Of a stretch of 64,000 nt of DNA, positions 13,113 through 60,557 are shown piece by piece. The first letter of the stretch is position 1, and every line of letters starts with the position of its first letter. Below the pieces are notes generated by a model. It was given only the letters and a program-made list of their open reading frames with translations. It was not told the DNA's origin and did no database searches. Source of the stretch: a virus. Its lineage: Duplodnaviria > Caudoviricetes. Location of the stretch: positions 32,001 to 96,000 of IMG/VR virus record IMGVR_UViG_3300032038_007781, one strand, 5' to 3'. The position numbers and the translations under genes are program-made.

Positions 13113-13113
13113 A

Positions 13114-13296
13114 ATGGAAAATTATAAAAATTATACTAATGCTGAACTTAATTTAAAACTTAAAGCATTGGAAAATAAATACGAAGCTAATAAAAGAAAA
13201 GTTTTGCAACTTATACATGAAATGCAAGAACTTGATATTGATTATTCCAATGCTAAAAAAGAGATAGATAAACGAAGTAAAGGATTATGGCGATAA
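13114..13296 (+). CDS. small coiled-coil hypothetical protein
   Basis: 60-aa ORF from ATG 13114 overlapping the next start. Confidence 0.65.
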   Translation: MENYKNYTNAELNLKLKALENKYEANKRKVLQLIHEMQELDIDYSNAKKEIDKRSKGLWR

Positions 13297-36180: not shown

Positions 36181-36213
36181 AAAAAAGAAGGATTCATTTA
36201 AGAACCCTTCTTT
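36181..36213 (-). terminator. terminator, copy 1 of a duplicated 33-bp element
   Basis: AAAAAAGAAGGATTCATTTAAGAACCCTTCTTT; 29/33 identical to 37781-37813. Confidence 0.7.
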
Positions 36214-37724
36214 TATACTATTTTTTTCCATACATATTTAAATAATCCACAATCATATATTCGATAAGCACCTATTGCATGACACATTTCGCTTTCAGAC
36301 ATAGTAAGTGGCAAACCATATTTTTTATTTAATATTTGTTTCCTAAAACCAAATTTGTGCATTCTATTAATACCAAATTCTTTAGGGTAGTAATATCTAT
36401 AGTCAGGAGGTAAAATATCATCTAATTTAAAACCTAATTGAACATATATATTGTTTTCTTTTCTTAAAGTCCATCTTCTATCTGCAAATGATTTTACATT
36501 TAATGGGTTATAAGTTCTTACGAAATATTTAAATAACTTACCGCCAACGCCATTACAAATATAATTATTGATGGAAGCAAATCTTGTTAAATTCCATTGT
36601 TTTTCTTTTTCTTTTAAAAATGTCATTACACCTACAAGTAAATTATTATAAAAACAACCAAGATAAATAGTGGAATTAACAAACCCTTGTATATGATTTT
36701 TATTAAGAAATATTTCAGCAGACTCTTTATCAATTTCCCTTATAACACATTTTCTTGCCATTATTTTCGGCAAATCAGTTTCGCATTTTAAAATGTGCTT
36801 TATCTTTTGGAGAACTAAATTTTTATTATTAATATATTCATCTTCAAATATATTAATAAGAGCAATGCCATGCTCGTTACATTTATTTAATTTATTTAAA
36901 TGATAAAATTTATCATCTTTATACATTTCAGAATGCCACCTAATGCCATTATATTCTATTGCTATTTGAAGGGATGGTATGTAAATATCTAATTCAAGTC
37001 CTTTTAAAATAATTCTATCATTTTTATGTACGTTTTCTTTGCCAATAATATTGCAAACGAATTCATATATTTCATTTTCAGCTTGTGACTCTATTTTAGC
37101 ACATTTAGGACATCCTTGTTTTTGGTTTAAATGTGCATCTGGTGTCATTAAAAATTCACCATGTTCTTTACCATTACTATCTTTTTCATGGCATATTATA
37201 CTAACATATTCTTTAGCGCCTTTATATACTGATTTGCTATAATCATATTTGTCATTATGAACTAAAAATGACTGCTCTTTAAAAAAGTTAGCATCTTTTG
37301 TTAAAGATTTACGTATTTTATCTTTTTTACATTCATTGCATCCTTCCCCACACAAATGCTTATTTGGACTTATTAAAAAATCACCATGCAGTGGGCATGT
37401 AACAATTACTTTTTCTTTACTTTTTAAATATTCTGTTTTAGAATAATCATAAAAATCATTATGTATTTCTTTAGCTTTTTCTATAAATGTTTCAGTGGTA
37501 TATGTTCGTTTTTTAGCTCGTTTAATTACGCCACATTTAGGGCAACCCCTTCCTTTTAAATGCTTTTCTGGTGTTTGCAAAAATTCACCATGCATTGGAC
37601 AAATTATAGTTATTGGTTCACTACTTTTATTGAAAATTGCTTTGGAATAGTCATAAAAATCATTATGAATTTCTTTAGCTTTTTCTATAAAATCTTTAGT
37701 ACAGGCTATTCTTTTTTTTGACAT
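36213..37724 (-). CDS. Hef-like free-standing homing endonuclease with DUF723-type Zn-ribbon repeats
   Basis: Three FIEKAKxxH..YDYS..IxCxxHGEF..H..GCxxC repeats; ELDIYIP..IAIEYNG.RWH; ARKC, NHIQG, LTRFAS, SFADRRW, IYDCG. Confidence 0.85.
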   Translation of the reverse strand: MSKKRIACTKDFIEKAKEIHNDFYDYSKAIFNKSSEPITIICPMHGEFLQTPEKHLKGRGCPKCGVIKRAKKRTYTTETFIEKAKEIHNDFYDYSKTEYLKSKEKVIVTCPLHGDFLISPNKHLCGEGCNECKKDKIRKSLTKDANFFKEQSFLVHNDKYDYSKSVYKGAKEYVSIICHEKDSNGKEHGEFLMTPDAHLNQKQGCPKCAKIESQAENEIYEFVCNIIGKENVHKNDRIILKGLELDIYIPSLQIAIEYNGIRWHSEMYKDDKFYHLNKLNKCNEHGIALINIFEDEYINNKNLVLQKIKHILKCETDLPKIMARKCVIREIDKESAEIFLNKNHIQGFVNSTIYLGCFYNNLLVGVMTFLKEKEKQWNLTRFASINNYICNGVGGKLFKYFVRTYNPLNVKSFADRRWTLRKENNIYVQLGFKLDDILPPDYRYYYPKEFGINRMHKFGFRKQILNKKYGLPLTMSESEMCHAIGAYRIYDCGLFKYVWKKIV

Positions 37725-41773: not shown

Positions 41774-42469
41774 ATGAGTAAAAATGAATTAATAGAAATA
41801 AAGAAAGGTAAGACAGGTAAAGGACTTATTATAGATAATGATGGATATATTTCTTTAAACGAAGGGAAAAACAGAACAATCAAAGAAGGAATAGAAGACG
41901 GTGGATGGCATGTTCCTTATCCATTTGTTGTAGATGCTGTATTTCAGAAATTTGACATTAAAAATGCTAACGGAAGAGTATATCCTGAAGGCGTATTGAA
42001 AAAGCAAGTAGAGATTTATCAACAAAAGATAGCAGAGCATAGGGCATATGGAGAATTAAATCACCCAGCTGAATCTACAATAGACCTTGGAAGAATATCG
42101 CATAATATCACTGAGTTGCATTGGGAAGGTAGAACGCTTGTAGGTAAAATTGAACTTAATATTACACAAGGATTTGTAAATGAAGGGATTGTTTCGACTA
42201 TGGGCGATATGGCAGCTAATCTATTACTTAATGGCTATAAAATAGGTGTTTCATCAAGAGGTGTAGGTTCAGTGGAAAATAAATTAGGAACATACATGGT
42301 AGGTGATGATTTTGAACTTATATGTTGGGACATTGTTTCAGACCCTAGTACACCAGGTGCTTATATTGGGCAAAGAGAAGATTTACAACAATATGTAGAA
42401 AACAAAAATCAAAATAAACCATTAGTAAATGAAAAAATAGAGCGAATAAAAAACATTCTTAAATCATAA
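41774..42469 (+). CDS. gp21: prohead core protease (T4 gp21-like)
   Basis: NANGRVYP, GELNHP, SHNIT, GVSSRGVGS, WDIVSDPSTPGA. Confidence 0.95.
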   Translation: MSKNELIEIKKGKTGKGLIIDNDGYISLNEGKNRTIKEGIEDGGWHVPYPFVVDAVFQKFDIKNANGRVYPEGVLKKQVEIYQQKIAEHRAYGELNHPAESTIDLGRISHNITELHWEGRTLVGKIELNITQGFVNEGIVSTMGDMAANLLLNGYKIGVSSRGVGSVENKLGTYMVGDDFELICWDIVSDPSTPGAYIGQREDLQQYVENKNQNKPLVNEKIERIKNILKS

Positions 42470-42862: not shown

Positions 42863-43183
42863 TTAGAAATTATTATATAATTCATTGTCAGTAAGCATAT
42901 GGTCATCATCGTCAATATATTGGTCTGCTTCTAAATCACTTAAATAATCCTGCATATCATCGTTATCATACTGATTTCCTATAAAATTTGTATAGTCATC
43001 ATAATCATCATCAGTCATACCATTATATTCTTCATAGCCACGAATGCCGTTTTCAATATCATCATTACCAGCTTCGTTTATCCTTTTATTTCCTTTACTA
43101 CCAATTTCGTTGACAATGCGTCTAACACTATTTTCTATAATTCTATGTAAATCACCTTCAGCTAACCTAATTAATTTCTTCAT
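42863..43183 (-). CDS. leader-tagged small acidic protein
   Basis: KKLIRLAEGDLHRIIENSVRRIVNE; TATTTATT at 43201-43208. Confidence 0.8.
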   Translation of the reverse strand: MKKLIRLAEGDLHRIIENSVRRIVNEIGSKGNKRINEAGNDDIENGIRGYEEYNGMTDDDYDDYTNFIGNQYDNDDMQDYLSDLEADQYIDDDDHMLTDNELYNNF

Positions 43184-43732: not shown

Positions 43733-44239
43733 TTATTTATCCATTGCCCTATTAAGGCTACCTTTTCGATGAAGTGGTCTCGAATCTGCCATTTTAGAGT
43801 ATTTTTCCATATCTTTGGTGTTCTGCCACTGCTTATCTAATTTATTTTTAAAACGCTGCATTTGCATTTTTTGCAATTCTTCATCAGCATCTAATGACCA
43901 ATCTTGGTTATGCGCAGGGTTTCCAAAACCATCGCTGTTAGTCCATTCAGCTGAAGGATAAAGCTCACCATCTTGGTAGTAAGCATGGTCCCCTTTTTCC
44001 CAGTCAGAGAATGCATCAGTTGTCCTATCGAGTGTGTGCAGCCTTTCTTTGTTTGGAATCGGGTCAAAAATTCCATATCTATCGCCGTCAAAATTTGAAG
44101 CGTATTCTGGGTATGCATTAATTCTATCTTCTGGTCTACCCATAGGGTTAGGATATTTTCCTTCTTTCAAGACTCTTTTTACTGACCTTTCTATGATTCT
44201 ATGTAAATCACCTTCAGTTAACCTAATTAATTTCTTCAT
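43733..44239 (-). CDS. leader-tagged small protein
   Basis: KKLIRLTEGDLHRIIERSVKRVLKE; ATG 44239. Confidence 0.8.
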   Translation of the reverse strand: MKKLIRLTEGDLHRIIERSVKRVLKEGKYPNPMGRPEDRINAYPEYASNFDGDRYGIFDPIPNKERLHTLDRTTDAFSDWEKGDHAYYQDGELYPSAEWTNSDGFGNPAHNQDWSLDADEELQKMQMQRFKNKLDKQWQNTKDMEKYSKMADSRPLHRKGSLNRAMDK

Positions 44240-45256: not shown

Positions 45257-46240
45257 ATGAATAAAGAAGAGATTAGACAACGTAACGAAAAGATATTTTG
45301 GGATAAAATGAAAGCATACCCATATGATTATGATTTCAGCAAAGTTAACTACGTTAATGCAAATAAAAAAGTTGAAATTATATGTCCAATACATGGTTCT
45401 TTTTTTGCTTGCCCTAAGCATTTAGTTTTAGAACATACAGGATGCCCTAAATGCAGAAATGATAAATTTAGAAACACTAAAGATACATTTATCAAACGTG
45501 TTAATGACGTATTTAATAGTAAATATGATTTAAGTAAATTTGTGTACACCAATAATAAAGCTAAAAGCATAGTTATTTGTCCTGAACATGGTGAGTTTTT
45601 AGCAAGCCCACATTCATTATACCAAGGTAAGGCCTGCCCTATATGTGGAAGGTTAAAAAGCAACAAAGAAGAAATGATTACTGAAAAAGAATGGATAGAA
45701 AGATTTAATAAAATCCATAAAGGTAAGTATGATTATTCTTTAATGAAATATAAAGGGTATAAAGAAAAAATAGAAATAATATGCCCACAACATGGTATTT
45801 TTTTGCAAACGCCAGATAACCATTATAGGGGAAAGGGTTGCCCTGTATGTAACAGTAGCAAGATGGAATCTGAAGTTAGAGAATTTTTAACTGAAAATAA
45901 CTTTAATTTCATAGAACAAAAACGTTTTAAATGGTTAGGTTTCCAATCTTTGGATTTCTTCTTACCAGAATATAACATAGCAATTGAATGCCAAGGTGCT
46001 CAACATTTTAACAGCATAGAAATATTTGAAAAAAAAATTACACTTAATGATAGAATAAAACTTGATGTTAATAAAAATAAGCAATGCATTAAAAATAGCA
46101 TAAAAGTACTTTATGTCATAAATATGAATGATTTGAAAATAGCGTTAAGTGACTTATGCTGTGGGATATATGATAATAATTTTATACTACGAGAAAATTT
46201 GGGCATACTTTTAAAAAAAATAAAAAAAGAAGAGGATTAA
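45257..46240 (+). CDS. putative homing endonuclease (DUF723-type repeats plus Vsr/DUF559-like nuclease)
   Basis: Three IICPxHG..H..GCPxC repeats; QSLDFFLPEYNIAIECQGAQH. Confidence 0.85.
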   Translation: MNKEEIRQRNEKIFWDKMKAYPYDYDFSKVNYVNANKKVEIICPIHGSFFACPKHLVLEHTGCPKCRNDKFRNTKDTFIKRVNDVFNSKYDLSKFVYTNNKAKSIVICPEHGEFLASPHSLYQGKACPICGRLKSNKEEMITEKEWIERFNKIHKGKYDYSLMKYKGYKEKIEIICPQHGIFLQTPDNHYRGKGCPVCNSSKMESEVREFLTENNFNFIEQKRFKWLGFQSLDFFLPEYNIAIECQGAQHFNSIEIFEKKITLNDRIKLDVNKNKQCIKNSIKVLYVINMNDLKIALSDLCCGIYDNNFILRENLGILLKKIKKEED

Positions 46241-48328
46241 TTAATCCCCTTCTTTTTTATTATTTAATTTATTATCAAGATTTGATATCATCCTATTAAA
46301 TTCTTCATTAATCATAAGTGATTTATCATAGATAGCAGTTCTTTCTATTCTTGCTTCATCTTTCCTCTTTTTTTCATCTTCATTAAGGTGCTTAAAATAT
46401 TGTGCAAACAATAAATCAACCTTTGCTTCATTATGTTTTACAGGGGTACGATATTTCACTTTTTTAACTTCATTAATAAGTGGTTTATATTTATTAACGC
46501 CTTCCATAGGAGGTGCAGCGCCCATATCATCAGTTCCACCACCCATATCCATAGTTGGTTCAGAACCTTCATTACCTGCAATTTCACCTTCATCTTCAGC
46601 ACCAGGAGCACCAAGTGAATCTAATTCAGAACCGAAGTCACCACCTCCAGCTGGCATACCGCCACCTCCTCCAAGGCCGCCACCCATGCCATCGTCACCT
46701 TGTTGCTGTACATCATCTTGATATTCAGCACCTGGCTCACCATACATTCTGTCAACTGTATCAAATACACCTGTACGTTTAATGATTTGAGATGTTTTTT
46801 CAAGTTCAGCAGCAATTGCCTTTTCAAGACGAATTTCTTCAAGGTTGTCTTTAATATCTTTGTCAGACCATTTCATGATTTCTTTCAACGCCCTTGTTTG
46901 TGACATTATAGGTATACCATTACCTGGGTCAGATATAGCGTCTCTCGCAGCACTAATTTTTTTCTGAATATTATCAATTTCAAGTTGTTCTGCTTGTGTG
47001 GATGGATTTGTCATCGACAAGCTAAAGTTTGTTAAGTCATCAGTAAACCCTAACAAATACAAATGAATCGAAGCGACTTTAGTTAATTCCATCAAAAATG
47101 CTTGCTGAATCTTATTAACAGTTCTTGTGAATCTAATATCTTCAAGAGCCAAGTTCTTGCCATCACCTTGCGCTTCTTCAAAGTTCAAAAATGCCTTAGG
47201 AATTCTTAACGCAGTGCAAACCTTATTCTGTACAAACTTGATGTCATCCATTGCAGTCAAGTTTTGCGCAGCAGACAACGTATCAATAGGTGTTGGTGCA
47301 TTTTGGTCACGTACAGGGATGAAGATATCTTGGTCTACCGATAATATATTTTTTCTTAAATCTATTTGTCCTGTCATTGGGTCAATAATAGGTGCACGTT
47401 TGAAATTATTAGCAATATTTTCAACATATGCCTGTACGTCAGCATCATCAATAGCACCTACATAAATCTTATACACACGCCTTTCAATAGAACGTTCCAA
47501 ACGATATATAAGCATCATATCTTCCATTAAGGAGAGCATCCTCCAGTGTCTTCTAGCAGAATTAAGAAAACTGGCTCCATAGGGCAAATAGATTGAATTT
47601 GTCATCAATCTAAAATGTGCTATTTGCCAATTTCTAAATGGTACTTGTGAATTACTTTCATCAAGCCAAACGAATTTTGTGGAAGTGTCAATCTTGCTTG
47701 AATCTGATTGTGTAGATACAGCCATAGATACGCCTGTTCCATAAGGATTCATAACGCCATTTTCAATACGTTCAACGTTAAACACTGGCAATTGTTTCCA
47801 ACCCTTAACACCAAGCTTATTGTCAATATCAAGCAGCATAAACTGATTACCATATTTACACATAGCTCTAATAACCATAGGTGCGGTTACCTGTAAATTT
47901 AACCTATTCACAAACAAATCTTCAAGAATTGATTTGATTCTGTCAGATTTAGATGATACAGTTACAATTTGACCTTTAGCATCTAAACATGTAGATTCTT
48001 CAGACACAATATCTAATGCAGCACCAATTTCAGGAAAGGAGTCCATAAGGTCGCAATCACGATACATTAGTTTTACATTATTGAGTCCTGAATATGCTGT
48101 TACTGACAGGTCTACATTAGCCTTAATCCATCTTTTTTTAAGATAACTATTTTGCTGTAATTCAAGTTTCTTTTCTTCATAATCAGCCTTATTAGTAGTT
48201 CTATATAGAATTCCTTTATCAGCAGTTGACATATCATATGAGTTAATATGCGGTGCAGATGCTTCAACATTCCAATTACCACTAAAAGCTTTATCAAGAT
48301 TTTGGAATATAGTATGATTTCTTGCCAT
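46241..48328 (-). CDS. gp20: portal protein (T4 gp20-like)
   Basis: PEIGAALDIVSEE, IAHFRL, LMEDMMLIYRLERSIERRVY, DIFIPVR, ALRIPKAFL, EDIRFTRTV. Confidence 0.96.
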   Translation of the reverse strand: MARNHTIFQNLDKAFSGNWNVEASAPHINSYDMSTADKGILYRTTNKADYEEKKLELQQNSYLKKRWIKANVDLSVTAYSGLNNVKLMYRDCDLMDSFPEIGAALDIVSEESTCLDAKGQIVTVSSKSDRIKSILEDLFVNRLNLQVTAPMVIRAMCKYGNQFMLLDIDNKLGVKGWKQLPVFNVERIENGVMNPYGTGVSMAVSTQSDSSKIDTSTKFVWLDESNSQVPFRNWQIAHFRLMTNSIYLPYGASFLNSARRHWRMLSLMEDMMLIYRLERSIERRVYKIYVGAIDDADVQAYVENIANNFKRAPIIDPMTGQIDLRKNILSVDQDIFIPVRDQNAPTPIDTLSAAQNLTAMDDIKFVQNKVCTALRIPKAFLNFEEAQGDGKNLALEDIRFTRTVNKIQQAFLMELTKVASIHLYLLGFTDDLTNFSLSMTNPSTQAEQLEIDNIQKKISAARDAISDPGNGIPIMSQTRALKEIMKWSDKDIKDNLEEIRLEKAIAAELEKTSQIIKRTGVFDTVDRMYGEPGAEYQDDVQQQGDDGMGGGLGGGGGMPAGGGDFGSELDSLGAPGAEDEGEIAGNEGSEPTMDMGGGTDDMGAAPPMEGVNKYKPLINEVKKVKYRTPVKHNEAKVDLLFAQYFKHLNEDEKKRKDEARIERTAIYDKSLMINEEFNRMISNLDNKLNNKKEGD

Positions 48329-48420: not shown

Positions 48421-49539
48421 ATGGTTAAAAGATTAACAACTGAAGAATTTATAAAAAGGTCTAATATAATTCATTCGAACAAGTATAACTACTCAAAAAC
48501 TAATTATATCAATGCAAGGACTAAGGTATGTATAATATGTCCAGAACACGGAGAATTTTATGTTTTACCAAATTCTCATTTACAGGGCTATGGGTGCAAG
48601 AAATGTGCAGATGCTTTAAAAAGTTCTTCAACTGAAGAATTTATTAAAAAGGCTAAAGAAAAGCATGGCGATGCATATGATTATGATAAAGTCAATTATG
48701 TAAATGCAAGAACTAAAGTAATTATAACTTGCAAAAAATGTGGTAATAGCTTTTTGCAAAAGCCGAATTCGCACCTTAATGGATGCGGGTGTCCGTATTG
48801 TAATGGTACAAAACATTTATCAACAGAAGAATTCATAGAAAAATCTAAAGCTATACACGGCAATAAATATGATTATTCAAAAACTAAATATGTAAGTGAA
48901 AATTCAAAAATTAAAATAATATGCCCAAAACACGGTGAATTTTATCAGCGCCCTTATGACCACATGGTTGGATGTGGGTGTGATAAATGTGGTGGTACTA
49001 AAAAATTAACCACAGAAGAATTTATTAAAAAGGCAAAAGAAGTCCATGGCAATAAATACGATTATAGGAATGTTAAATATAAAAGCTATAAAGATAATGT
49101 TGCAATTTTATGCCCAAAGCATGGTGAATTCTATCAACTTCCATCAGAGCATCTTAGAGGGCATGGATGCCCTTTATGCAATGAGAGTACACTTGAAAGA
49201 GAAATTAAAGATAAACTACAGGAATTATCAATAGAGTATGTATACCAAAAAAAGTTTGATTGGTTAAAACCTCAATCGTTAGATTTTTATTTGCCAAAAT
49301 ATAATATAGCTATAGAATGCCAAGGAGAGCAGCACTTTAAATCCGTTGACCACTTTGGAGGTGTAGAAGGATTTGTTAAACGTTTAAAGTTAGATGGGTT
49401 AAAGCAAAAAAAATGCCTTGAAAATGGAGTTAGATTGTTGTACTATACAAATCCAAAATACAAACTATTTAAATTCTTATATAATTCCAAAAATACTATA
49501 TTAGATATAAATGACCTATTGAACTTTATTAAATTGTAA
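48421..49539 (+). CDS. putative homing endonuclease (DUF723-type repeats plus Vsr/DUF559-like nuclease)
   Basis: Four TEEFIxKAKxxHG..YDY..C..HG..H..GC..C repeats; QSLDFYLPKYNIAIECQGEQH. Confidence 0.85.
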   Translation: MVKRLTTEEFIKRSNIIHSNKYNYSKTNYINARTKVCIICPEHGEFYVLPNSHLQGYGCKKCADALKSSSTEEFIKKAKEKHGDAYDYDKVNYVNARTKVIITCKKCGNSFLQKPNSHLNGCGCPYCNGTKHLSTEEFIEKSKAIHGNKYDYSKTKYVSENSKIKIICPKHGEFYQRPYDHMVGCGCDKCGGTKKLTTEEFIKKAKEVHGNKYDYRNVKYKSYKDNVAILCPKHGEFYQLPSEHLRGHGCPLCNESTLEREIKDKLQELSIEYVYQKKFDWLKPQSLDFYLPKYNIAIECQGEQHFKSVDHFGGVEGFVKRLKLDGLKQKKCLENGVRLLYYTNPKYKLFKFLYNSKNTILDINDLLNFIKL

Positions 49540-49578: not shown

Positions 49579-51462
49579 TTATTTATATCCTGCGAACAAC
49601 CATAAATAACTTCCCATGTTATTCAAGCCATTATTAGTTCTTTTTATGGTTCTTTCATTGTAAAATGGTAAACCATTGTTAGGCGTAATAGGTCTTCCTT
49701 CTGAAGTCCTTGGCTTATTCATATTCATAGCCCCACCCATCATATAAGCATTAAGAATTGATTGGTCTTTATGTTTAGCTTCTTCAAGCCTATTATAGGT
49801 ATACTTCATGACAAATAAAGCCATTGCTAAAGAGCAAATAGTATCATCATGTGCCCCATCTTGGTGATTCATTCTACCTGTTTCACCTTCAAAAATCCAT
49901 GTATCCAATTCATTAGTAACCCTATTAGAGCGTATTTTAAACTCATTTGAACGTACCATACCCGCAAAACTTGCAAGTACAGGATATCTATTTCCTTGAA
50001 AATGGAAACCAGGTAATCTATCAGAAAAATTCATTGGTTTATTTGTTTGATTTTGTACAGTATAAGTTTTCTGATTGGCATCTTCATAATAAAAGTTCTT
50101 ATATCCTAACTGAATCATCGTAAGAATTAATGCATCACCTTGGCCACCTGTACAATCGACCACAACATAGGCTTCATTATAAAGTTTAGCATATTGATAA
50201 ACCATACCACCAATATCATCACCTAATTTTTTGCCTACATATTCACCAACTTGTTCTATGATTGGCATACCATTTTCGTCCCTACCATCCATATCAATTA
50301 TTTCTATAGCAGTCCTATCGGCTGACACGCCCCTGGAGGGGTCCGCTCCAATTATATACCTATGCCCATCAATAGGCTTTTTCCAAAACCAAGTATCTTC
50401 ATTCATAGGGTCTTTAAAATCTTCCAACGGTTCACGAACATTAAGGGTGTTTTGCTGTTCAATAAATTCAGGTGCAACAACGTTATTGGCAGAACCTTGG
50501 AATGATACATCCAACTCCTGAGCAATTTTCATTGAATCGTTGTTGAATGATTTGCACATTTCTTCATACCAAGGTGAACGTGGTGTCCAACCTTTTTGAA
50601 TCATTTCTTCCCAATGTTCCTCATCATATTTTACAGAGCCTTCTTCATCAACTAAATCTTCAACAAACCACTTTAATTCACCTGTTTCTTCGTTTTTCTT
50701 AAACCATTTAAGATTTTTGTTATAACGAGGGTCTTGATACCATCTAAACTGTACGGCAGTAAAGTTGTTTTCGTGAGCTAAAGCTTGCTTATATGTGTTG
50801 TAATAAAGTTCATCGTGACCATTAGGTGTTGATACCATTACAGTCTTTGAATTAGGGTTAGATGCCATACACGCAGCACAAGTAGCATATACAGCTTTAC
50901 CATTTTCAATAAATCCTGCCTCATCAAGTATCAATATAGATACGGCAGAAATACCACGGGCTGCATTTTCACCTGAAGAACGAGCAATTATATGACACCC
51001 ATTAAATAATTCAAGTTCTGATTTACTATCTTTAACAAATATAGATTTTGTGTTTTTATCAGATTTAGGGTCAGGTGAATAATAATCATCACCCCAATAC
51101 CAACGAGGAACTTGTGTTAAAAAGTCCCTCATTTTAGTGATTAACTGATTGGCAAGGTCAAGTTTGTTACCAACGCAAAGAATTGTTTCAGGAGCATCTT
51201 CTGAAGCAAAAACACATTGAGCTGTAGCCCACGCACTGGTAAGCGTTGTTATACCACACTGACGTGGTTTAATAGAAACAATATTTCTTACTTTTGCCAA
51301 TGTTTGTAAGAACACTTTCTGCCTTGGAAAGCAATGAAATTGCGTTTTCTTTCCTTTAGTGGCATTGAAAGTGCTCAAATATTTTTCAATGAAATAAATT
51401 CTTGATTTATCTTGAAATGACTTTATATATTCAGCAGCCATTTCATTAGGGTCAATTATCAT
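49579..51462 (-). CDS. gp17: terminase large subunit (T4 gp17-like)
   Basis: KPRQCGITT (Walker A), LILDEAGF (Walker B), STPNG, QELD, IGADPSRG, HDD. Confidence 0.96.
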   Translation of the reverse strand: MIIDPNEMAAEYIKSFQDKSRIYFIEKYLSTFNATKGKKTQFHCFPRQKVFLQTLAKVRNIVSIKPRQCGITTLTSAWATAQCVFASEDAPETILCVGNKLDLANQLITKMRDFLTQVPRWYWGDDYYSPDPKSDKNTKSIFVKDSKSELELFNGCHIIARSSGENAARGISAVSILILDEAGFIENGKAVYATCAACMASNPNSKTVMVSTPNGHDELYYNTYKQALAHENNFTAVQFRWYQDPRYNKNLKWFKKNEETGELKWFVEDLVDEEGSVKYDEEHWEEMIQKGWTPRSPWYEEMCKSFNNDSMKIAQELDVSFQGSANNVVAPEFIEQQNTLNVREPLEDFKDPMNEDTWFWKKPIDGHRYIIGADPSRGVSADRTAIEIIDMDGRDENGMPIIEQVGEYVGKKLGDDIGGMVYQYAKLYNEAYVVVDCTGGQGDALILTMIQLGYKNFYYEDANQKTYTVQNQTNKPMNFSDRLPGFHFQGNRYPVLASFAGMVRSNEFKIRSNRVTNELDTWIFEGETGRMNHQDGAHDDTICSLAMALFVMKYTYNRLEEAKHKDQSILNAYMMGGAMNMNKPRTSEGRPITPNNGLPFYNERTIKRTNNGLNNMGSYLWLFAGYK

Positions 51463-52403
51463 GTTTTCATAATTTCTTCTAGCAATTTATTTTTATCATC
51501 AATGACATCATATGAATACTTTTTATCTGAATAATATAATAATTTCACACCATTTTGTTTACATAACTTTTTCTTATTTTCATCAAGTTCTTTCCTATGT
51601 ATAAAATCATCTATCCCACCAAAAAAATCTATAGGGTAATAATGCTGTTTGCCTTGACATTCTATAGCAATGTTGTATTCGCTCAAATAAAAATCAATCC
51701 TTTGTAAACCCATCCAGCTAAATCTCTTTTGTTCTTCAAAAGAGATTTTTGATTCTGTTAATAAAGTTCTTATCTCATTTTCTAAAGAAGAAGAATTACA
51801 TTTAGGACACCCTTGCCCTCTCACATGGTTATCCGCTATTTGCTCGAAATCACCATGTATAGGACATTTTATTTTTATAACAGATTTTTCATTTCTATAT
51901 ACTACATTAGAATAATCATATTTATCACCATGCTTTTCTTTGGCATCACTGATGAACTGTTTCAAAGGTTTTACTCTTTTTTTAGCTCTTCTTTCCAAGC
52001 CACATTTTTGGCATCCATTCCCAGATAAATGATAATGTGGTATTTGCTCAAAATCACCATGTATTTTACAAGTTATTGTGACAGGCGTTAAAGCATCCAC
52101 ATATTTAGTTTTTTCATATGAATATTTATCGCCATGCACTTCTTTGGCTCTTTTTATAAACTCTTCAGTTGTTAATGTTTTATTTACTGAATTTTTTTCT
52201 GATGAGCATTTTGGACATCCTTGTCCACAAAGATGTTTGTTTACAGTTTTATAAAATACACCATGTTTCTTGCAAATAATTGGCATTTTTGTTGTATTAC
52301 CTGTATATTCTACGTCATCTTTAATGAATAAAGAATAATCATAAACATTGTTGAAAATAATGTTAGCTTTTTTTACTATATCGTCTTTTGTTAATTTTTT
52401 CAT
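51459..52403 (-). CDS. putative homing endonuclease (DUF723-type repeats plus Vsr/DUF559-like nuclease)
   Basis: Three CxxHG..H..GCxxC repeats; RIDFYLSEYNIAIECQGKQH; ATGA overlap with the terminase start; TATATTTG at 52427-52434. Confidence 0.85.
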   Translation of the reverse strand: MKKLTKDDIVKKANIIFNNVYDYSLFIKDDVEYTGNTTKMPIICKKHGVFYKTVNKHLCGQGCPKCSSEKNSVNKTLTTEEFIKRAKEVHGDKYSYEKTKYVDALTPVTITCKIHGDFEQIPHYHLSGNGCQKCGLERRAKKRVKPLKQFISDAKEKHGDKYDYSNVVYRNEKSVIKIKCPIHGDFEQIADNHVRGQGCPKCNSSSLENEIRTLLTESKISFEEQKRFSWMGLQRIDFYLSEYNIAIECQGKQHYYPIDFFGGIDDFIHRKELDENKKKLCKQNGVKLLYYSDKKYSYDVIDDKNKLLEEIMKT

Positions 52404-52554
52404 TATCACAAATTTACATATTTTAACAAATATATATAAAAAATATTTTTTTAAAAAAGCATACTAATGATTATTATTCATTTTTTTCTTAACATAGTCA
52501 GATTTTGCGTGTGTGTAATTATTTAATCTATCTTTATATTGAAAATAATTATTT

Positions 52555-53847
52555 TCAACCCATCCAATCATCATTCGTCAAATGATTTTTTAAAGGTGAT
52601 AAATGATAAGAATCATTATATTCGTTTTCTTGATTTTCTTCGATGTTGCCTTCTTCTGAAATAGTGTAACTATCTAATTCATCAGCAGTCATATACCCAT
52701 CGCTGATTAAAGAACTATCTACATTTTTTTGTGATATATTATCTAAGAATTCTTGATATTGCATATCATGTTCTATATTTTCTGTAGAACTTAATAAATA
52801 TCCTTTCCCTTTTTTTGTATTAGCTAATATGTTTTTTGTTATATCGAAAAATGCATCTTTTTCTTCAGAGCAATATTGTGCAAAGAAATAAGGAATCATA
52901 TTTGATAGAATATGATATTTGCCAAACATTTTATTCCACAATGGAACACCCAATCTTATATCCCAAGGCTCAGCCATTGCAAAATCCGAACGTTTAATAA
53001 TTGCTTGCGCTTTATGATTATCTTCAGGTAAGCCATGAGAAGAAAATAATTCCATAAATCCACGTATTGTCTCCTTTAAAAGATAAGGGAATATTATACC
53101 CTGTGATTTGATAACAGTTTTATTATCCCCATGTCCTAAATGCACTTCTACATATGATACTAATGTTGGGTTTTTTTTATCTATTTTTTCTTCCTTTACG
53201 AAAATTAAGTAATCATTCAGTGTATTAATCTTTGCATATAAATCAAGTAAATTTTCCAATCCGTGACTTATAAAAAAATCAGCATAATTCTCATCATTTT
53301 CTGATTCTATAACAGAATAACCTTGTATCAATGAATTAATAAACCTTCTTTGTTTTACAATATCATTAACTTGCGAAATTTCATCTACATCATTAAATGT
53401 ATATTCATCGCTATCACCGCTATCTTCAGGTATTACCCTTATTGATTTTTGTGGCGTGACGTTATCAGTCAATTCACAAGTTAAATTAATCGTTTCCTGA
53501 GGTACAGCAAATAATTTATTAACAACATTTTCAACTAACTTATTTAAATGAGGCCTAATACCTCTTTCAATTGACATTGCTTTTGTTGTCAATTTATATA
53601 ACAAATTTTCAGCTTCAATATCATCTAAAGGTAATTCAAATTCTTTCATATTCTCAATTAATTCAGAATATCTTTGCTTAAGAAGCTTATAATCAAAATC
53701 ATAATCTGACGAAGGTGGAAAACATGGACTTTCCCCTAAAGAAGTATTATGAGTTTTAACTGATTTATACACATAATCAGGTAACTTTTCATCCATAAAA
53801 TTCTTTAGTGACGTTAATTTTTCTTCAGATATTATAATTTTTTTCAT
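52555..53847 (-). CDS. hypothetical head-module protein with short leader
   Basis: MKKIIISEEKL leader; RRFINSLIQG, FPYLLKETIRG, AEPWDIRLG. Confidence 0.75.
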   Translation of the reverse strand: MKKIIISEEKLTSLKNFMDEKLPDYVYKSVKTHNTSLGESPCFPPSSDYDFDYKLLKQRYSELIENMKEFELPLDDIEAENLLYKLTTKAMSIERGIRPHLNKLVENVVNKLFAVPQETINLTCELTDNVTPQKSIRVIPEDSGDSDEYTFNDVDEISQVNDIVKQRRFINSLIQGYSVIESENDENYADFFISHGLENLLDLYAKINTLNDYLIFVKEEKIDKKNPTLVSYVEVHLGHGDNKTVIKSQGIIFPYLLKETIRGFMELFSSHGLPEDNHKAQAIIKRSDFAMAEPWDIRLGVPLWNKMFGKYHILSNMIPYFFAQYCSEEKDAFFDITKNILANTKKGKGYLLSSTENIEHDMQYQEFLDNISQKNVDSSLISDGYMTADELDSYTISEEGNIEENQENEYNDSYHLSPLKNHLTNDDWMG

Positions 53848-53848
53848 A

Positions 53849-54292
53849 TTATAATTTTTTTAAAAAATTATCTAATTCTTTTTTAGTAAAATTAATTGAT
53901 TCACCTAAATTAGTTGATGCGCCTTTCATATGTATTTTACCTATTGCAGTACCATTATTTACGGCAGCAGCCAATTGTGGGTTAGATTTAATTGCACTGT
54001 CTATTGTTTTAGATGCATCTGAAGCACCGTTAACGTTAAAATTAGCGATTGTTGGTGTAACTGATTTATTCTTATCAGCGTAGTTTGATAAATTAACATT
54101 AAATGTATTTGCTTCAGGATTGTCAGCCTTAGCAGTATTTAAATCACTTGAAATATTAGAACTACCTGTTGCTGAAGGCGTTACATTAGCTTCTTTATTT
54201 ATATTTGCACCATTATTTAAAGAATCTGAATTAAATGTTAATTCATCTTCTATAAGTTTAAGTTGTCTTTTTTCAAAAATTATTTTTTTCAT
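53849..54292 (-). CDS. hypothetical late protein with short leader
   Basis: MKKIIFEKRQLKLIE; TATTTATA at 54309-54316; C-terminal FTKKELDNFL. Confidence 0.75.
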   Translation of the reverse strand: MKKIIFEKRQLKLIEDELTFNSDSLNNGANINKEANVTPSATGSSNISSDLNTAKADNPEANTFNVNLSNYADKNKSVTPTIANFNVNGASDASKTIDSAIKSNPQLAAAVNNGTAIGKIHMKGASTNLGESINFTKKELDNFLKKL

Positions 54293-54333: not shown

Positions 54334-54358
54334 AAGGGAAGCCTATTAGACTTCCCTT
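54334..54358 (-). terminator. intrinsic terminator
   Basis: AAGGGAAG...CTTCCCTT stem with T-run on the minus strand. Confidence 0.75.
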
Positions 54359-54362: not shown

Positions 54363-54896
54363 TTACCTTCCTGCTACAAAAGGATTATTTCTTTTTACTC
54401 TTTTATTAGTAATTTTTTTTTCATCACGTTTAGTGCCTTTAACTCCTTCTCTATCATTCATATCCAAATCTCCAATAATACCATTAACAATTTCATTAAC
54501 TAACTTATTGTGATATTTCCTTGATTCCATAGGCATTTCTGGCATAGGTTCTTGACTATATTCTTCGTTGCTGTCGTTTCCATTATCATTTTTGGATTGA
54601 CTTTTTGCGTATTTTAGAATTGCATTTTTAGTTTCAATACTTGCACTATTGAAAATATCATCCAATTCTTGTTGGTCAGAATCTTGTGATTGATTATCAG
54701 CACCATCACCCATAGGGTCACTATCATTCATAGGGTCATTGCCACCTGCAGGTTCATTACCTGCCATAGGGTCAGCACCACCCATAGGGTCATTTCCCAT
54801 CATAGGGCCAGCACCACCCATAGGTCCACCCATAGGGTCAGGTGCTGTATACTGTTTTGGTACTTTAATTACATACTTTTCAGTTATCGTATGAAT
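54363..54896 (-). CDS. -1 frame extension of the 471-aa gene (DPM-repeat, acidic)
   Basis: Frame is open from the TTTGGGAAAAAAA slippery run: IHTITEKYVIKVPKQYTAPDP-MGG...; first ATG only at 54833, inside the repeats. Confidence 0.6.
   Translation of the reverse strand: MHTITEKYVIKVPKQYTAPDPMGGPMGGAGPMMGNDPMGGADPMAGNEPAGGNDPMNDSDPMGDGADNQSQDSDQQELDDIFNSASIETKNAILKYAKSQSKNDNGNDSNEEYSQEPMPEMPMESRKYHNKLVNEIVNGIIGDLDMNDREGVKGTKRDEKKITNKRVKRNNPFVAGR
54709..54840 (-). repeat. coding repeats of CATAGGGTCA (xxxDPM units)
   Basis: Repeated GAC CCT ATG codon triplets, mostly at 18-bp periodicity. Confidence 0.85.
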
Positions 54897-56299
54897 TTTT
54901 TTCCCAAATGCCTTTTAATAGATTCTGCAATAGTATTTTCCATTTCTTCTGGGTCAACTACAAACGGAGCACTGCTGCCAATTTTTTCACCATATGGATT
55001 TTCATTATATACGCTTTCATCGTTCATATCATAATATCCAGGGAATTCTTGCTTTGCAGTCTTAGGCAATTCCATTACTTTCTTCTGATAAGCTGGATGT
55101 TTACCAAAATCGTTCAATTTATTCATATTGCCACTTGGGACTCTACCTGCATCAGAAAAAGCTTTCATTTTTTCATCTTCATTAACCATCATTCTTCTGA
55201 ATGCACGTGACTCATATACTTGCACGCCTCTACGGTTACGAGATTCCATAGGCATTTCATCATCATCAAGGTCATCATCTTCGTCTCCATAAAGGTCATC
55301 ATCCTCATAATCACTACTATCAACTGTTGGTTCATCACCACCTACAGCTGTTAATATTGAATCAACCTTATCAGACAAATCAGCAATTTGGTCTTGCAAA
55401 TCGTGAATATCAGGGTCAGTTTCGTCTTCATACTCATATTCAACATCGAATCCATCTTCATCATCAGCCAAGGCGCTATCATCTTCTACATCAGCTTCTC
55501 CATCAATGTCATCAATGTCTTCAGTAATATCTTTGCCTTTAGCATCATCAAAAGGTGCTGAATCACCAATTTCAGTGCCGTGTGATTTATCCAAATATTC
55601 GTCAGCAATGTTACCAGAAGCATCTTTACCTGTTGAATGCCATGCCAATGGTTCAGCAGCTTCATTCATATCTTTCATATCAGAATCTTTTACAGTTTTA
55701 AAATCTTTAACTGCATTTTTTGCGTCACCTGTCTGAGGTGCTTTCTGCTTACCAATATTGTTTTTGCCTTGCGCTTTCACATCAGCTTCACAGCCTTCGC
55801 AAGAGCAAGCTTCTTCAGCGATTGGTTTTAAATTCTGCTCTTTCTTTTCATTGATGCGAGAAGCATTCATCATAATCTGACGTTCACGTGAGATTTCCTT
55901 TCTCAACCTTTCAGTTGATTCTACAGTCAATTCTTCCTGTCTATCAGGGTTCCAAGATTCAACCATAATTTTCTTTTCAGGAGCATTAGCTTCATTGATA
56001 CTCATCATTTTCAAATCAAACTGCTTCTGAGCTTCAGCAAAACTTTTGTATTCATTGTCTTTTCTGTTTCTGAATCCACCGATATATTCGAAATTTTCAG
56101 CTAATTGTCCTTTTTTGTTTGGTGAAGTCTTAATATAGTATTTAGCGCCTTCACGTACAATACCGTATAATTTACCATCAGCACCAACCTTCTGATATTC
56201 AACACCAGTGTAAGCAATATTCTTACCTTCATTAATGCCAAATTTCATAAGGCTTTTCATTCTTGTAAGCTGACTATTTACGTCCTTGCTATTGTTCAT
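54884..56299 (-). CDS. acidic putative prohead-core protein
   Basis: LTRMKSLM...INE N-terminus, YGIVREG.KYYIK domain, many I/M-x-E sites, acidic tracts; TATTTATA at 56340-56347. Confidence 0.7.
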   Translation of the reverse strand: MNNSKDVNSQLTRMKSLMKFGINEGKNIAYTGVEYQKVGADGKLYGIVREGAKYYIKTSPNKKGQLAENFEYIGGFRNRKDNEYKSFAEAQKQFDLKMMSINEANAPEKKIMVESWNPDRQEELTVESTERLRKEISRERQIMMNASRINEKKEQNLKPIAEEACSCEGCEADVKAQGKNNIGKQKAPQTGDAKNAVKDFKTVKDSDMKDMNEAAEPLAWHSTGKDASGNIADEYLDKSHGTEIGDSAPFDDAKGKDITEDIDDIDGEADVEDDSALADDEDGFDVEYEYEDETDPDIHDLQDQIADLSDKVDSILTAVGGDEPTVDSSDYEDDDLYGDEDDDLDDDEMPMESRNRRGVQVYESRAFRRMMVNEDEKMKAFSDAGRVPSGNMNKLNDFGKHPAYQKKVMELPKTAKQEFPGYYDMNDESVYNENPYGEKIGSSAPFVVDPEEMENTIAESIKRHLGKKFIR

Positions 56300-56376: not shown

Positions 56377-59355
56377 TTAGGCAATATCATCAGAAGTACC
56401 TTCAATATTATCACGTCCTCTTGTATCATATTCAACATTTTGTACTACATGTGTAAAAGAACTTAATGGTCTTAGATATATTGCACCTATAGGTTTCAAT
56501 TTATTAGGGTCATATTGTATGCAATATACATATTCAACACCCAAATACGCAGATAAATCTTTATCATATAAAACTTTGTAAAGTTTACCGTTCTCCATGC
56601 TTTGCATTATTTCACCTGTTTGTATAATATAATTCCTAAGTATATCTTTTTGGCGCTTCCATTTTTTAATATATGGATTATGCTCAGAATTACCATCAGC
56701 AACTACTTCCTCAAATACATACCCTTTATTTTCATATACGTTTCTACCCATTGGCTTAATTCCTTTATCATAGAATCTATCTATCTCGCCAATCACATAT
56801 CTCCAATCAGGGTATACATATTTGACGCCAACATCACCCACCTTTTCATTATATACATCCATATATAATTCTTCATCAGAATAAGATGCTATAACTTTTC
56901 TAAGGACTTCTTTTTGCTTATAAGTTGGCTCTCTGCCAATGTCTATAGAATTAGGCATTATTCTAATGTTACCAAGTTTAATAAATTGGAATTTATCATC
57001 AATACCATTTATTCGTGTTACTTCGTTGTGTTCACCTTCAGTATATATAATGTTACCATCAGATAAAATAAAGCCCCTACAACCTTTAAAATAGTCACCG
57101 TGCCTAAATAATTGTAACGCACGATAATTTAATTCATACGGATTGTTAATATCTATAGGGCTATCTTCATACATTTCGCAAGTTTCAAATCTTCCTGTGT
57201 ATGAGAAGAAGTCGTATTTATCTATTTCGCCTTTTTGTATGAAAGTGTTAAGCATTTTTTCAGCCCAATCTTCACCAAAAATATCTACCAAATCATCCCA
57301 ATCAACACTATCACCACCACAATATTGATAATATTCATTATCATAATATGTTAATTCAAAAGTAGGGAATTCGTTTTTAACATATGCAGCTAAAACTTCA
57401 TTGCTATTTTCAAGCCCATTTTCTTCAAGATATTCTTTATAATCATCTTGGTCAATTGATAATTCCCATTCTATCGCACCTACTTTTGATAAATCTACTG
57501 AAGCAGATTCATTTATTATTCTACTTTCGGTGATAGAATTAAGCTTATCATACAATTTGCTTGAAATGTCCCATAACTTATCAAGATATTCAGTTCTCCT
57601 TAATACCTTATATATAATATTATATGGGTCAGTTTCACCTCCACGCTTTAAACCTAATTTACGCATTGATTTAATCTTATTCAACAATTTGTGTGTCTTC
57701 TTACCAATTTTTCTTAGTTGTGCATCATCATTTGTGGAATTCATTAAATCAATATAATCATCAATTTTAGTCATTATTTTTGATGATTTAAGTTTAATTT
57801 CTTTACTGTCAGGTGCAATGGAATGTATATCATTCGGGTTAGGCTTTTTTATCCAATTATTGTCTTCCAAATCATACAACCCACCAGATTCAGTTTCAGC
57901 ATTTATATCTTCTACGTATACTTCAACATTGAAGCCATAAATTTTTAACCCTTCATGTTCATTATTCCATTCATTCTTTTTTGAATTGAAATATTCTTGA
58001 ACAAAATTTGTCCTTTCATCAACTTCAGAAAAATCTACAATTATGTGCAAATCAATGTCTGAAAATTTAGACCAATTGTAATTACAAATTGAGCCTGTTA
58101 AAATAATGCCTTTTCTTTTAACCCAATTAATGTTAACAGTTTCCCAAAAATCATCAGCAATATCTAATAGTTTTAGCCTTACTTTAGAATTTAATTTATC
58201 ACCTTTCCAAATTTTAGGTGCTAAAGTATCTTCTTTTTTAAAAGAGTCAAGGCTTACCTCATCAGCACTAACTTCTAATTCTTGATTTTCTTCGATATTT
58301 TGTTCTACGTGAAAATATTCATTGTTACCACCATCGCCTTCAGCACCTATATACCCATCAGGTTTAGACTCTTTTATTTGGCAATATTTGCTGTTAAAAT
58401 ATTCTTGAGGTGTATAAAATTCCTTCCCATCCATTCCGTCTATGCAAATGCTTTTAATAGCATTTGGGTAAATAACGCCACGATACCCTATTTTTGTATA
58501 TTTAACAGGATTTTCTTTTTTATCAATAACATTTGCTTTATGATAATCAGTATAGTCTATGCCATTTTTTTCCATTTGGCTGTTATATACATTATCAAAT
58601 CTTTCATTTGCGTAAGAATTATATGCATCGTAGTCAAACACAAATTTATTTTCATCAAGTTTATCACCATCAAATTCTATAACACAAGGATAAAATTTTT
58701 TTTCATTGATTGGCATATCACCAGAAACAATAGAAGCATATTCCATTGCAATATCAAAATTTGATGTTATGAACACAGTATCACTATGCTTAATACTCCA
58801 TCTACTTTTTTCAGGGTTACTTCTTAACCCCTTTTTAAGTATTCCTTCTGCAAATCTTAAAGCAGTGCCATGATAAAAAGATTTTGGCTTTTCTATATTT
58901 CTATTTATTTGTGAAGTTTTTATTTCTTTAGACCCATAATAAACATTTACATAATCTAAGTTAAACATTTTATTTAATGAATAGAGTTCAGTAGAGTTTA
59001 AAACATTATATGTGCTATTAGGTGTGATTTCTAAAGTATTACCATAGAAACAACCTGTTACAAGTCTTGGGAAATTAGAACCTAATATTTTTGTATATTT
59101 TTCAATATCATGATTTTCAATTGCTATATCTAAATCATTTAAATAATCCTTCAATTCACTCTTATGACTATTTAGCATGTTTTTTAATGATAATGGGTTA
59201 TCATCTGTGTATATAGCAATATCACCTTTATATAAAGCAAAATAAAACACACCATTATTTGAACCCATGTCTGAATCTGGATTCAAATTAAGCTCGTTTA
59301 TTATACTTTCTCTTAATTTTAAAAGCTTATGTTCATTTAATATTATTTTTTTCAT
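56377..59355 (-). CDS. leader-tagged polyprotein: ART/Tpt1-like, Pol-beta-type nucleotidyltransferase and further domains
   Basis: MKKIILNE...IINE leader; FYHGT...ILKKGL...VFITS...AMEYA; LTGSICNYNWSKFSDIDLHI...EVYVED; GFILSDG domain. Confidence 0.7.
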   Translation of the reverse strand: MKKIILNEHKLLKLRESIINELNLNPDSDMGSNNGVFYFALYKGDIAIYTDDNPLSLKNMLNSHKSELKDYLNDLDIAIENHDIEKYTKILGSNFPRLVTGCFYGNTLEITPNSTYNVLNSTELYSLNKMFNLDYVNVYYGSKEIKTSQINRNIEKPKSFYHGTALRFAEGILKKGLRSNPEKSRWSIKHSDTVFITSNFDIAMEYASIVSGDMPINEKKFYPCVIEFDGDKLDENKFVFDYDAYNSYANERFDNVYNSQMEKNGIDYTDYHKANVIDKKENPVKYTKIGYRGVIYPNAIKSICIDGMDGKEFYTPQEYFNSKYCQIKESKPDGYIGAEGDGGNNEYFHVEQNIEENQELEVSADEVSLDSFKKEDTLAPKIWKGDKLNSKVRLKLLDIADDFWETVNINWVKRKGIILTGSICNYNWSKFSDIDLHIIVDFSEVDERTNFVQEYFNSKKNEWNNEHEGLKIYGFNVEVYVEDINAETESGGLYDLEDNNWIKKPNPNDIHSIAPDSKEIKLKSSKIMTKIDDYIDLMNSTNDDAQLRKIGKKTHKLLNKIKSMRKLGLKRGGETDPYNIIYKVLRRTEYLDKLWDISSKLYDKLNSITESRIINESASVDLSKVGAIEWELSIDQDDYKEYLEENGLENSNEVLAAYVKNEFPTFELTYYDNEYYQYCGGDSVDWDDLVDIFGEDWAEKMLNTFIQKGEIDKYDFFSYTGRFETCEMYEDSPIDINNPYELNYRALQLFRHGDYFKGCRGFILSDGNIIYTEGEHNEVTRINGIDDKFQFIKLGNIRIMPNSIDIGREPTYKQKEVLRKVIASYSDEELYMDVYNEKVGDVGVKYVYPDWRYVIGEIDRFYDKGIKPMGRNVYENKGYVFEEVVADGNSEHNPYIKKWKRQKDILRNYIIQTGEIMQSMENGKLYKVLYDKDLSAYLGVEYVYCIQYDPNKLKPIGAIYLRPLSSFTHVVQNVEYDTRGRDNIEGTSDDIA

Positions 59356-59672: not shown

Positions 59673-60557
59673 ATGATGAAAAAGACTGTTATTATATCTG
59701 AAAGTACATTTAACAATATATTTACCAATTTAGTTTTGGAAGATAAAACAATGGATGACGCAGTTAGACGATTAGCGCTCTACCAAAAATTAGGAAATGA
59801 TTATTTTAAAAACCCGTCAATAAGTGATGAGACCATGACTAATGATAAAATTACTTATGACTTAGCTTTAAAAAATCAAATGAATGAAATTGTTGATGCT
59901 ATATATGACACTTATGAAAAAATTTCACACAATATGCATGCATTCTATAATTCAGCAACAAATGAACCGCCTGCAACAAAAGAAAAAACTAACATAGGTA
60001 AATTTGGTATGCATCCTTCTACATTTTATTTGGAGCCAGATTATGATAAGCAACATTTATCGCCATCAGATAGAAAAACATTTATGCAAAAATGTAGATG
60101 TTATTATATGCTTATTATGGAAATATATAATAGTGGTGTACCAGTTTGGGCTAATTTGTTTTTTAACCCAAAATATGATGTGGCAAAGAAAACTTTCTTA
60201 AAATGTAATCAAATATCAAGTGGTACATTAGAACGAATAAGTGTTGGTGTGGCTGATAGTGATGGTAACTATCCAGAAGGTACTATAAATTGGATAAGGA
60301 AAAAACGCAGTGTTAACAATAGAACTGGTAATGAAACTAAATATTTAACAAATGACTTTCAACCAGCTACGTTTGGACAAAAGGAACAATACCTAAAATT
60401 TGTACCAACAAAGGAAAAAAGTGCTATTATGCAATGGTATATTAAGGCAAAAAATGACCCGTCTATGTATGAAAAATATATAATGCAAAACAAACCTACA
60501 AATCCAGAAGCATCTAAGAGTGTTAGGGGTAAAAGAATATTTGGTCTTAAAAGATAA
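59673..60557 (+). CDS. hypothetical protein with short leader
   Basis: MMKKTVIISESTFNNIFTNLVLE. Confidence 0.75.
   Translation: MMKKTVIISESTFNNIFTNLVLEDKTMDDAVRRLALYQKLGNDYFKNPSISDETMTNDKITYDLALKNQMNEIVDAIYDTYEKISHNMHAFYNSATNEPPATKEKTNIGKFGMHPSTFYLEPDYDKQHLSPSDRKTFMQKCRCYYMLIMEIYNSGVPVWANLFFNPKYDVAKKTFLKCNQISSGTLERISVGVADSDGNYPEGTINWIRKKRSVNNRTGNETKYLTNDFQPATFGQKEQYLKFVPTKEKSAIMQWYIKAKNDPSMYEKYIMQNKPTNPEASKSVRGKRIFGLKR

Follow-up and report, generated by a model that had tools for sequence, protein, structure and literature searches.

ORF1, ORF2 and the junction between them

The 64,000-nucleotide stretch of viral DNA analysed here (the window) belongs to a 126-kb virus record that is estimated to be 36% complete, with a GC content of approximately 30%. 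In addition to a T4-type head module with genes for the large terminase, portal, gp23-like capsid protein and gp21-like prohead protease, it carries on its minus strand a pair of open reading frames, ORF1 and ORF2 (Table 1), for which the original prediction had proposed a programmed -1 ribosomal frameshift leading from the first into the second. The 3' end of ORF1 reads CAT TTG GGA AAA AAA TTC ATA CGA TAA in the window sequence and, as had been predicted, contains three overlapping in-phase heptamers, T_TTG_GGA (54908-54902), G_GGA_AAA (54905-54899) and A_AAA_AAA (54902-54896), the last of which is a run of seven A residues (A7; 54896-54902, minus strand). The -1 frame has a TAA stop at 54917-54915 and is then open for 183 codons (54914-54363), its translation beginning KAFGKKIHTITEKYVIKVPKQYTAPDPMGG. 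The first ATG, GTG or TTG of this frame is the ATG at 54833, within the DPMGG repeats of ORF2, such that the frame does open just before the run and leads into the repeat-bearing ORF as claimed. Slippage on the lysine codons would join 468 residues to 177, giving a computed product of 645 amino acids that agrees with the size foreseen. The isoleucine-threonine-glutamate (ITE) tripeptide soon after the shift and the heptapeptide EMPMESR in both ORFs were likewise found where they had been described.

No terminator-like hairpin was detected between ORF1 and ORF2, the one listed in Table 1 lying beyond ORF2. Within the window alone, an A7 run is by itself not unusual, given a total of 90 A/T runs of at least seven nucleotides, and shuffling gave a probability of approximately 0.23 that a 20-codon linker would be free of stops by chance; it is therefore the comparison with relatives that raises the observation far above chance.

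Table 1. Positions of the ORF1-ORF2 junction elements and of the head-module genes in the window
Feature	Position	Strand	Remarks
ORF1	54884-56299	minus	471 aa; zero-frame product; ends GKKFIR*
Slip site T_TTG_GGA_AAA_AAA	54896-54908	minus	three overlapping in-phase X_XXY_YYZ heptamers
Zero-frame stop TAA	54884-54886	minus	inside the -1-frame codons ATA ACT
ITE in the -1 frame	54879-54887	minus	candidate cleavage motif for a gp21-type prohead protease
21-nt block TACGATAACTGAAAAGTATGT	54872-54892	minus	without variation in the window's clade; begins 4 nt downstream of the A run; candidate 3' stimulator
Shifted-frame linker, run to first ATG	54834-54895	minus	...IHTITEKYVIKVPKQYTAPDP; translatable only after a shift
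ORF2 as gene callers see it	54363-54833	minus	156 aa from the first ATG
Terminator-like hairpin and T run	54334-54358	minus	directly 3' of the ORF2 stop
gp23-like capsid protein	37841-39823		
T4 gp21-like prohead protease (Peptidase_S77)	41774-42469	plus	PF03420, E 7.4e-23, 77.1 bits, above the curated cut-off; match spans 41918-42376
Portal	46241-48328		
Large terminase	49579-51462		

Relatives of the junction and the shifted-frame linker

A total of 64 viral and 80 metagenome loci were fetched, with some contigs occurring in both collections, and the ORF1 C-terminus was present in 62 and 79 of these, respectively, giving 141 relatives. The complete ORF1 proteins numbered 135, the 107 distinct sequences among them being utilized for a tree. 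These relatives originate from rumen and gut samples and are encoded on contigs of up to 412 kb, whilst comparison with an annotated phage record collection at both the DNA and protein level retrieved no similar record. Across the 141 relatives and the window, the downstream ORF lies in the -1 frame in 111 loci, in the +1 frame in 31 and in frame in none (0/142); the conserved -1 overlap that had been predicted thus holds for the former loci and is replaced by a +1 arrangement in the latter. The anticipated slippery run is widely conserved, with A7-A11 at the junction in 139 of the 142 loci and A9-A11 in 128 of the 141 relatives, and the alternate frame opens at or before the run in every locus. 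Parsimony on the tree of distinct ORF1 proteins required nine flips between -1 and +1 and 20 changes in run length, and despite the nine flips no member is in frame. Three relatives (L001, L015 and L035) resemble the window in having A7 in phase. Of the three loci without a run of at least seven, L071 has only A4, yet displays T_TTG_GGA_AAA (including G_GGA_AAA) in phase and the same -1 arrangement, and L024 has A5 followed by T residues, with A_AAT_TTT in phase; the third is L088. Runs of differing length also occur between the same flanks, being A9 (-1) in L075, L078 and L079 and A11 (+1) in L077, and the in-frame A10 intermediate between the two types was not seen among these loci.

The linker that separates the run from the first ATG is 11-67 codons in length (mean 23) and is stop-free in all 46 distinct loci, for each of which shuffling gave a mean chance of approximately 0.21. 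In the shifted frame, every one of the 45 distinct viral loci encodes [ILV]-[NTSI]-E one to seven codons past the last lysine codon, followed by either (K/R)(H/F/Y)V.LK.P or.FEERPTKLEIP. Amongst the metagenome loci, [ILV]-x-E was found by regular expression in 75 of 77, and additionally L119 encodes IGE and L071 ITE. The linker varies synonymously, with GAA in 28 loci and GAG in 17 and six different codons for the first residue of the motif, and in the ERPTKL segment the differences from consensus numbered 4, 0 and 25 at codon positions 1, 2 and 3, respectively. Furthermore, P0133, a stand-alone ORF2 homologue, aligns through its residues 24-36 with the window sequence TITEKYVIKVPKQ (E 4e-24). 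As the linker is open, coding and homologous to this protein, both a chance overlap and an independent start within the family are considered excluded; no canonical start (ATG, GTG or TTG) precedes the conserved shifted-frame segment where ORF1 lies upstream, contrary to one of the outcomes by which the prediction could have failed.

Protein searches were in keeping with this arrangement. A protein collection held 1288 homologues of ORF1, none with a family name; all twelve of the 1288 that were examined end at the same place, after a lysine-rich tail, and the extra length of the longer examples consists of insertions in the acidic middle of the protein, not of a fusion. ORF2, searched against 1.84 billion representatives, retrieved 58 proteins of 79-200 aa, save for P0164 (1231 aa, low-complexity). 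No fused ORF1-ORF2 protein was recovered in the two protein searches, one of which was limited to longer proteins; such absence from databases is the expected outcome of gene callers. None of the homologous loci was an in-frame fusion (0/142), the form that would have spoken against the prediction.

A miscounted homopolymer was another outcome envisaged by the prediction, in that A8 would place the two ORFs in frame. However, a 9.5-kb DNA contig (run X1) and a 945-nt contig (run X3), originating from different studies, both cross the A7 without an indel, a pattern scan permitting A6-A8 returned only A7 in the viral collection (2/2), and close relatives at 90-92% identity likewise have A7. The two independent DNA assemblies therefore exclude a homopolymer assembly error, with run length here being judged from assembled contigs, in which minority A7/A8 variants can be hidden. 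The broader proposal that the true or 'on' form of the gene is an in-frame fusion, masked either by such an error or by phase variation at the DNA level, could draw upon the differing runs of near-identical relatives (A9 in L075 and A11 in L077) and upon the 20 run-length changes on the tree, but with no assembled locus in frame and no fused protein in two collections we regard it as extremely improbable. It is also very unlikely that the ORFs are two separate genes, with ORF2 starting at the ATG at 54833 or by reinitiation and the open overlap being tolerated non-coding sequence. This alternative has in its favour that gene callers do report stand-alone ORF2 proteins, that four of the 58 ORF2 representatives, all distant, have their own start and a leader, and that L088 has no run; against it stands a linker conserved as shifted-frame protein and devoid of start codons, and an alternate frame that opens inside the run in all 16 of the +1 viral loci. 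Moreover, in the +1 clades the LTE codons are located upstream of the ORF1 stop, so that reinitiation after termination cannot translate them. Judged by these comparisons, ORF1 and the ORF downstream of it are best explained as a single recoded gene.

Slippage by the ribosome or by RNA polymerase

The clade to which the window belongs has short runs (A7, with A4, A8 and A9 in relatives) and has retained in-phase heptamers. An alignment of this clade was constructed from six gene pairs of 63-70% nucleotide identity (96% for the WIN/L069 pair), and the longest invariant stretch in its 2.6 kb is the 21-nt block downstream of the slip site, of which only the first 8 nt are double-coding. The second-longest is the 11-nt TACCAAAACAG (54847-54857, minus strand), just beyond the first, and no other exceeds 8 nt. 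Both blocks, for which no convincing structure was found, are invariant between flanks that diverge by 30-37%, and within them are CUGAAAAGUA and UACCAAAACAG, mirror images of one another around A4. Three other clades, with A9/A10 runs, have no such block, and in one of these no invariant stretch is longer than the run. An upstream Shine-Dalgarno-like stimulator was also considered, and was dismissed for want of conservation in the alignment of the clade, whilst an H-type pseudoknot (UAC/GUA, CUG/CAG) can be drawn by eye downstream, with stems of only 3-5 bp, and hence is not claimed.

On this evidence a ribosomal -1 frameshift at the window site is probable, and we infer that in the window's clade it is the ribosome that slips rather than RNA polymerase. 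Most ribosomes would read ORF1 to its TAA and produce the 471-aa acidic protein, whilst a minority would slip back one base on T_TTG_GGA_AAA_AAA and produce the -1 fusion of approximately 645 aa, with the invariant block of 21 nt, which begins 4 nt past the run, probably assisting the slip.

The principal alternative is transcriptional slippage, in which a host or phage polymerase adds one A and the share of the mRNA with A8 encodes the fusion, to be read normally by the ribosome. Conserved overlapping ORFs with a conserved run of nine A residues have been put forward as the criterion for functional slippage (PMC1088944), and both features are found in this family. In keeping with such slippage, A9-A11 runs predominate among the relatives, -1 and +1 arrangements both occur and interchange, as insertions or deletions by a polymerase would serve either, and in the A9/A10 clades it is the run that is most conserved, without the downstream block. 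Selection against slippage-prone runs becomes evident at nine nucleotides in many bacteria, as described in the same source (PMC1088944), and A/T runs of at least nine located away from the site are approximately three-fold depleted in these phages (19 observed against ~61 expected in 542 kb). The metatranscriptome contigs (X7, X10) contribute a weak hint: none bridges the run, 54901-54948 being uncovered, and three of them, originating from two studies, stop within the run (at 54899 or 54900), which DNA contigs traverse; the depth of the RNA contigs was 3-7x, with co-occurring strains. On the other hand, the A7 of the window falls short of the ~9 nucleotides needed for polymerase realignment, the -1 arrangement persists in L071 with A4, and L024 has A5 followed by T residues. 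Runs of at least seven show no depletion in these phages (511 observed, 454 expected), and the window's clade keeps in-phase heptamers and a 3' block that polymerase slippage would not need. For the window we therefore consider transcriptional slippage unlikely.

Several observations nonetheless weigh against a ribosomal -1 shift. No stable or covarying downstream RNA structure was found, the mean z-score over 46 loci being -0.68 with one of the 46 below -2; the downstream fold of the window itself had a z-score of -0.40, and the consensus fold of its clade (alifold) reached -1.9 kcal/mol with pairs that never vary. The 31 +1 loci and the A9-A11 runs are more readily reconciled with polymerase slippage, or with undirected sliding along poly-A, than with a -1 heptamer of the classical kind. 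The metagenome locus L088 (3118-3165) is the sole relative without an evident slip site, with an ORF1 ending in RNLRNF*, an ORF2 in the +1 frame and no [ILV]-x-E, and L107 also lacks this motif. L088 is nested among A10 (+1) relatives with nearly identical ORF1 sequences. As the A9-A11 runs serve a -1 or a +1 ORF in most relatives, it may be that not every member relies strictly on ribosomal -1 shifting, and the mechanism of the family as a whole may not be ribosomal. Slippage of either kind is possible in the long-run relatives, and those with A9-A11 may use transcriptional slippage instead. The programmed -1 ribosomal shift of the prediction is accordingly supported in its site, its conservation and its coding linker, and may require restriction to a part of the family in its mechanism.

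Candidate cleavage motif, proposed head loading and comparison with known systems

The ORF1 protein is acidic and largely disordered, with a mean predicted local distance difference test score (pLDDT) of 50.9 from AlphaFold2 (AF2). ORF2 comprises the DPMGG repeats, a confidently predicted helical hairpin, MPMESR and a basic tail ending in NPFVAGR, and is otherwise predicted to be mostly disordered (AF2 mean pLDDT 61.9, with ~92 for residues 66-98 of the 171-aa fragment). The EMPMESR heptapeptides (55237-55257 in ORF1 and 54519-54539 in ORF2, minus strand) are encoded by an identical 17 nt, GAAATGCCTATGGAATC, and MPMES(R/K) is kept in homologues of both ORFs, where it follows an acidic stretch and precedes a basic helix; it could represent a second motif for processing or binding. 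The notion that ORF2 is a duplicate of the ORF1 C-terminus was rejected, the best BLASTP match between the two having an E value of 0.18. A second A9 run is located inside ORF2 (54413-54421, T9 on the plus strand; GAT GAA AAA AAA ATT, RDEKKIT) and is also present in L001; a shift there would cut off the conserved NPFVAGR tail.

Short motifs in head proteins are cut after a glutamate by the T4 protease gp21 and by its relatives in giant phages (PMC5694885, PMC9026906), with ITE-6 and LTE-619 as gp21 sites in T4 Alt (PMC5694885). The ITE and LTE found after the shift are the same tripeptides as these Alt sites, and ORF1 itself has isoleucine-asparagine-glutamate at residues 22-24, with E24 conserved in at least 90% of sequences. 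In the four ORF2 representatives with their own start and N-terminal leader (P0133, P0143, P0144 and P0154), the leader ends in [IL]-x-E, and the (K/R)HV..P motif seen in the linker follows immediately; for instance, MKKQLIRLTENDLHRIIENTVGDILNE directly precedes RHVMRLPNQ. The ITE/LTE motif, the gp21-like protease and the leader-bearing ORF2 homologues together suggest head loading by fusion and subsequent cleavage.

In the proposed pathway, the fusion, which has ITE six residues after the shift, would be cut at this tripeptide by the gp21-like protease, freeing a 171-aa ORF2 polypeptide inside the prohead. ORF2 would be a cargo of the head that depends on an N-terminal carrier and is set free at [ILV]-x-E. 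In this family ORF1 would be that carrier, delivering ORF2 to the head at a low, fixed ratio. Both the cleavage at ITE and the head location of its product are what we infer from these motifs. The original prediction of a prohead-core protein made in two isoforms is thus supported in its two-product recoding, and its prohead-core function is suggested by the head-module context, the gp21-like protease, the ITE/LTE-type motif and the leader-bearing homologues. A point that counts against a head role is that neither ORF resembles a known head protein: there was no match to ORF1 or ORF2 in PHROGs, Pfam, NCBIfam or a PDB sequence profile, and the ESM Atlas returned only hypothetical proteins. No sequence similarity to the T4 internal proteins was found either. 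We therefore put forward only tentatively, as somewhat less likely than not to hold in full, a frameshift-mediated, Gag-Pol-like head loading in widespread ~400-kb rumen and gut phages, with a carrier, a set ratio and gp21-type release, in which evolution would have exchanged this route, in other phages, for a short N-terminal leader (MKKLIRLTE.DLHRIIE...) on the cargo, and the heptamer and 3' element for a bare A9-A11 run that serves either frame.

Leaders of this type also occur elsewhere. At least seven other ORFs of the phage record start with (M)KKLI(R/K)LTE.DLH.II(E/K)..V...[ILV].E, two of them between the portal and protease genes; they are located in the window at 15976-16875(-), 19427-19855(-), 42863-43183(-) and 43733-44239(-), and in G000 at 12905-13480(+), 28442-28699(-) and 100543-101490(+). 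The same leader heads the stand-alone ORF2 homologues P0133 and P0144 of other phages; having gp21-type cleavage motifs, it is a candidate propeptide for head targeting. A related N-terminal motif, MKKII(x)xE, also recurs and begins the genes that flank ORF1 and ORF2 (MKKIIISEEKL, MKKIIFEKRQL, MKKIILNEHKL), namely 52555-53847(-), 53849-54292(-), 56377-59355(-) and 59673-60557(+), and also 98431-98805(+) in G000. The terminase, portal and capsid genes are interrupted by four genes for HNH/homing endonucleases lying between them (51459-52409(-), 48421-49539(+), 45257-46240(+) and 36213-37724(-)). No tRNA genes were found in the window, and sigma-70-like promoter matches were at chance level (16 against 14.9 expected).

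Frameshifts that give a C-terminally extended minor form of a head protein occur in T7 gene 10A/10B and in the capsid genes of the Listeria phages PSA and A118. Those shifts extend the major capsid protein, whereas the protein lengthened here is acidic and disordered, and probably loses its extension again by cleavage. In retroviral Gag-Pol, a -1 shift adds a second protein to an abundant assembly protein, which is packaged at a low fixed ratio and released by the viral protease; the proteins are unrelated to those described here, for which packaging and cleavage are proposed from sequence motifs. The G_GGA_AAA of the window is nearly identical to the lambda heptamer (G_GGA_AAG type). As in lambda gpG/gpGT and other tail-chaperone shifts, the two products would share an N-terminus at a fixed ratio, and it is the arrangement that is conserved rather than the sequence (PMC5009743). 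The present genes differ from gpG/gpGT in their location beside terminase and portal genes instead of before a tape-measure gene, in their mostly poly-A runs, in the interchange of -1 and +1, and in the protease-type motif after the shift. A parallel for the variable slip site is dnaX, whose homologues appear to obtain two products via either a heptamer or a long A run, with ribosomal -1 frameshifting at A_AAA_AAG in Escherichia coli and transcriptional slippage in Thermus thermophilus; homologous genes that use either route are described for dnaX and insertion sequence (IS) elements (PMC5009743). The dnaX shift truncates its product, whereas the shift predicted in the window would extend it by approximately 177 residues. 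Overlapping ORFs fused on an A run are likewise found in IS orfA-orfB, with A6G/A7 ribosomal and 9A transcriptional sites (PMC1088944), the gene concerned here belonging to a phage structural module and not encoding a transposase. The capsid-targeting sequences and gp21 processing of T4 (IPIII, Alt) share the cut after glutamate in [IL]-x-E (PMC5694885, PMC9026906); T4 utilizes a 10-residue N-terminal peptide, whereas the carrier here would be a whole 468-residue protein joined by frameshifting.

That frameshifts extend phage structural proteins is already known. What distinguishes the present case is a new gene family in uncultured jumbo phages, the coupling of the shift to a protease-type motif, the difference in slip-site design between clades and the repeated flipping of the frame, which never brings the ORFs in frame. 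A literature search, which was not exhaustive, for frameshifting in jumbo-phage or prohead/scaffold genes found nothing on this system. Hundreds of public contigs annotate the pair as two unrelated hypothetical proteins, and their treatment as a single recoded gene amends the annotation across an entire family of jumbo phages. Homologous sites with either a short heptamer and conserved 3' block or a bare A9-A11 run offer a natural comparison, which bears on how ribosomal and transcriptional slippage may replace each other. If the cleavage and head location hold, these phages would control the dose of an internal head protein in a new manner, and the leader that replaces ORF1 in some homologues would be a candidate targeting sequence for the packaging of foreign proteins.

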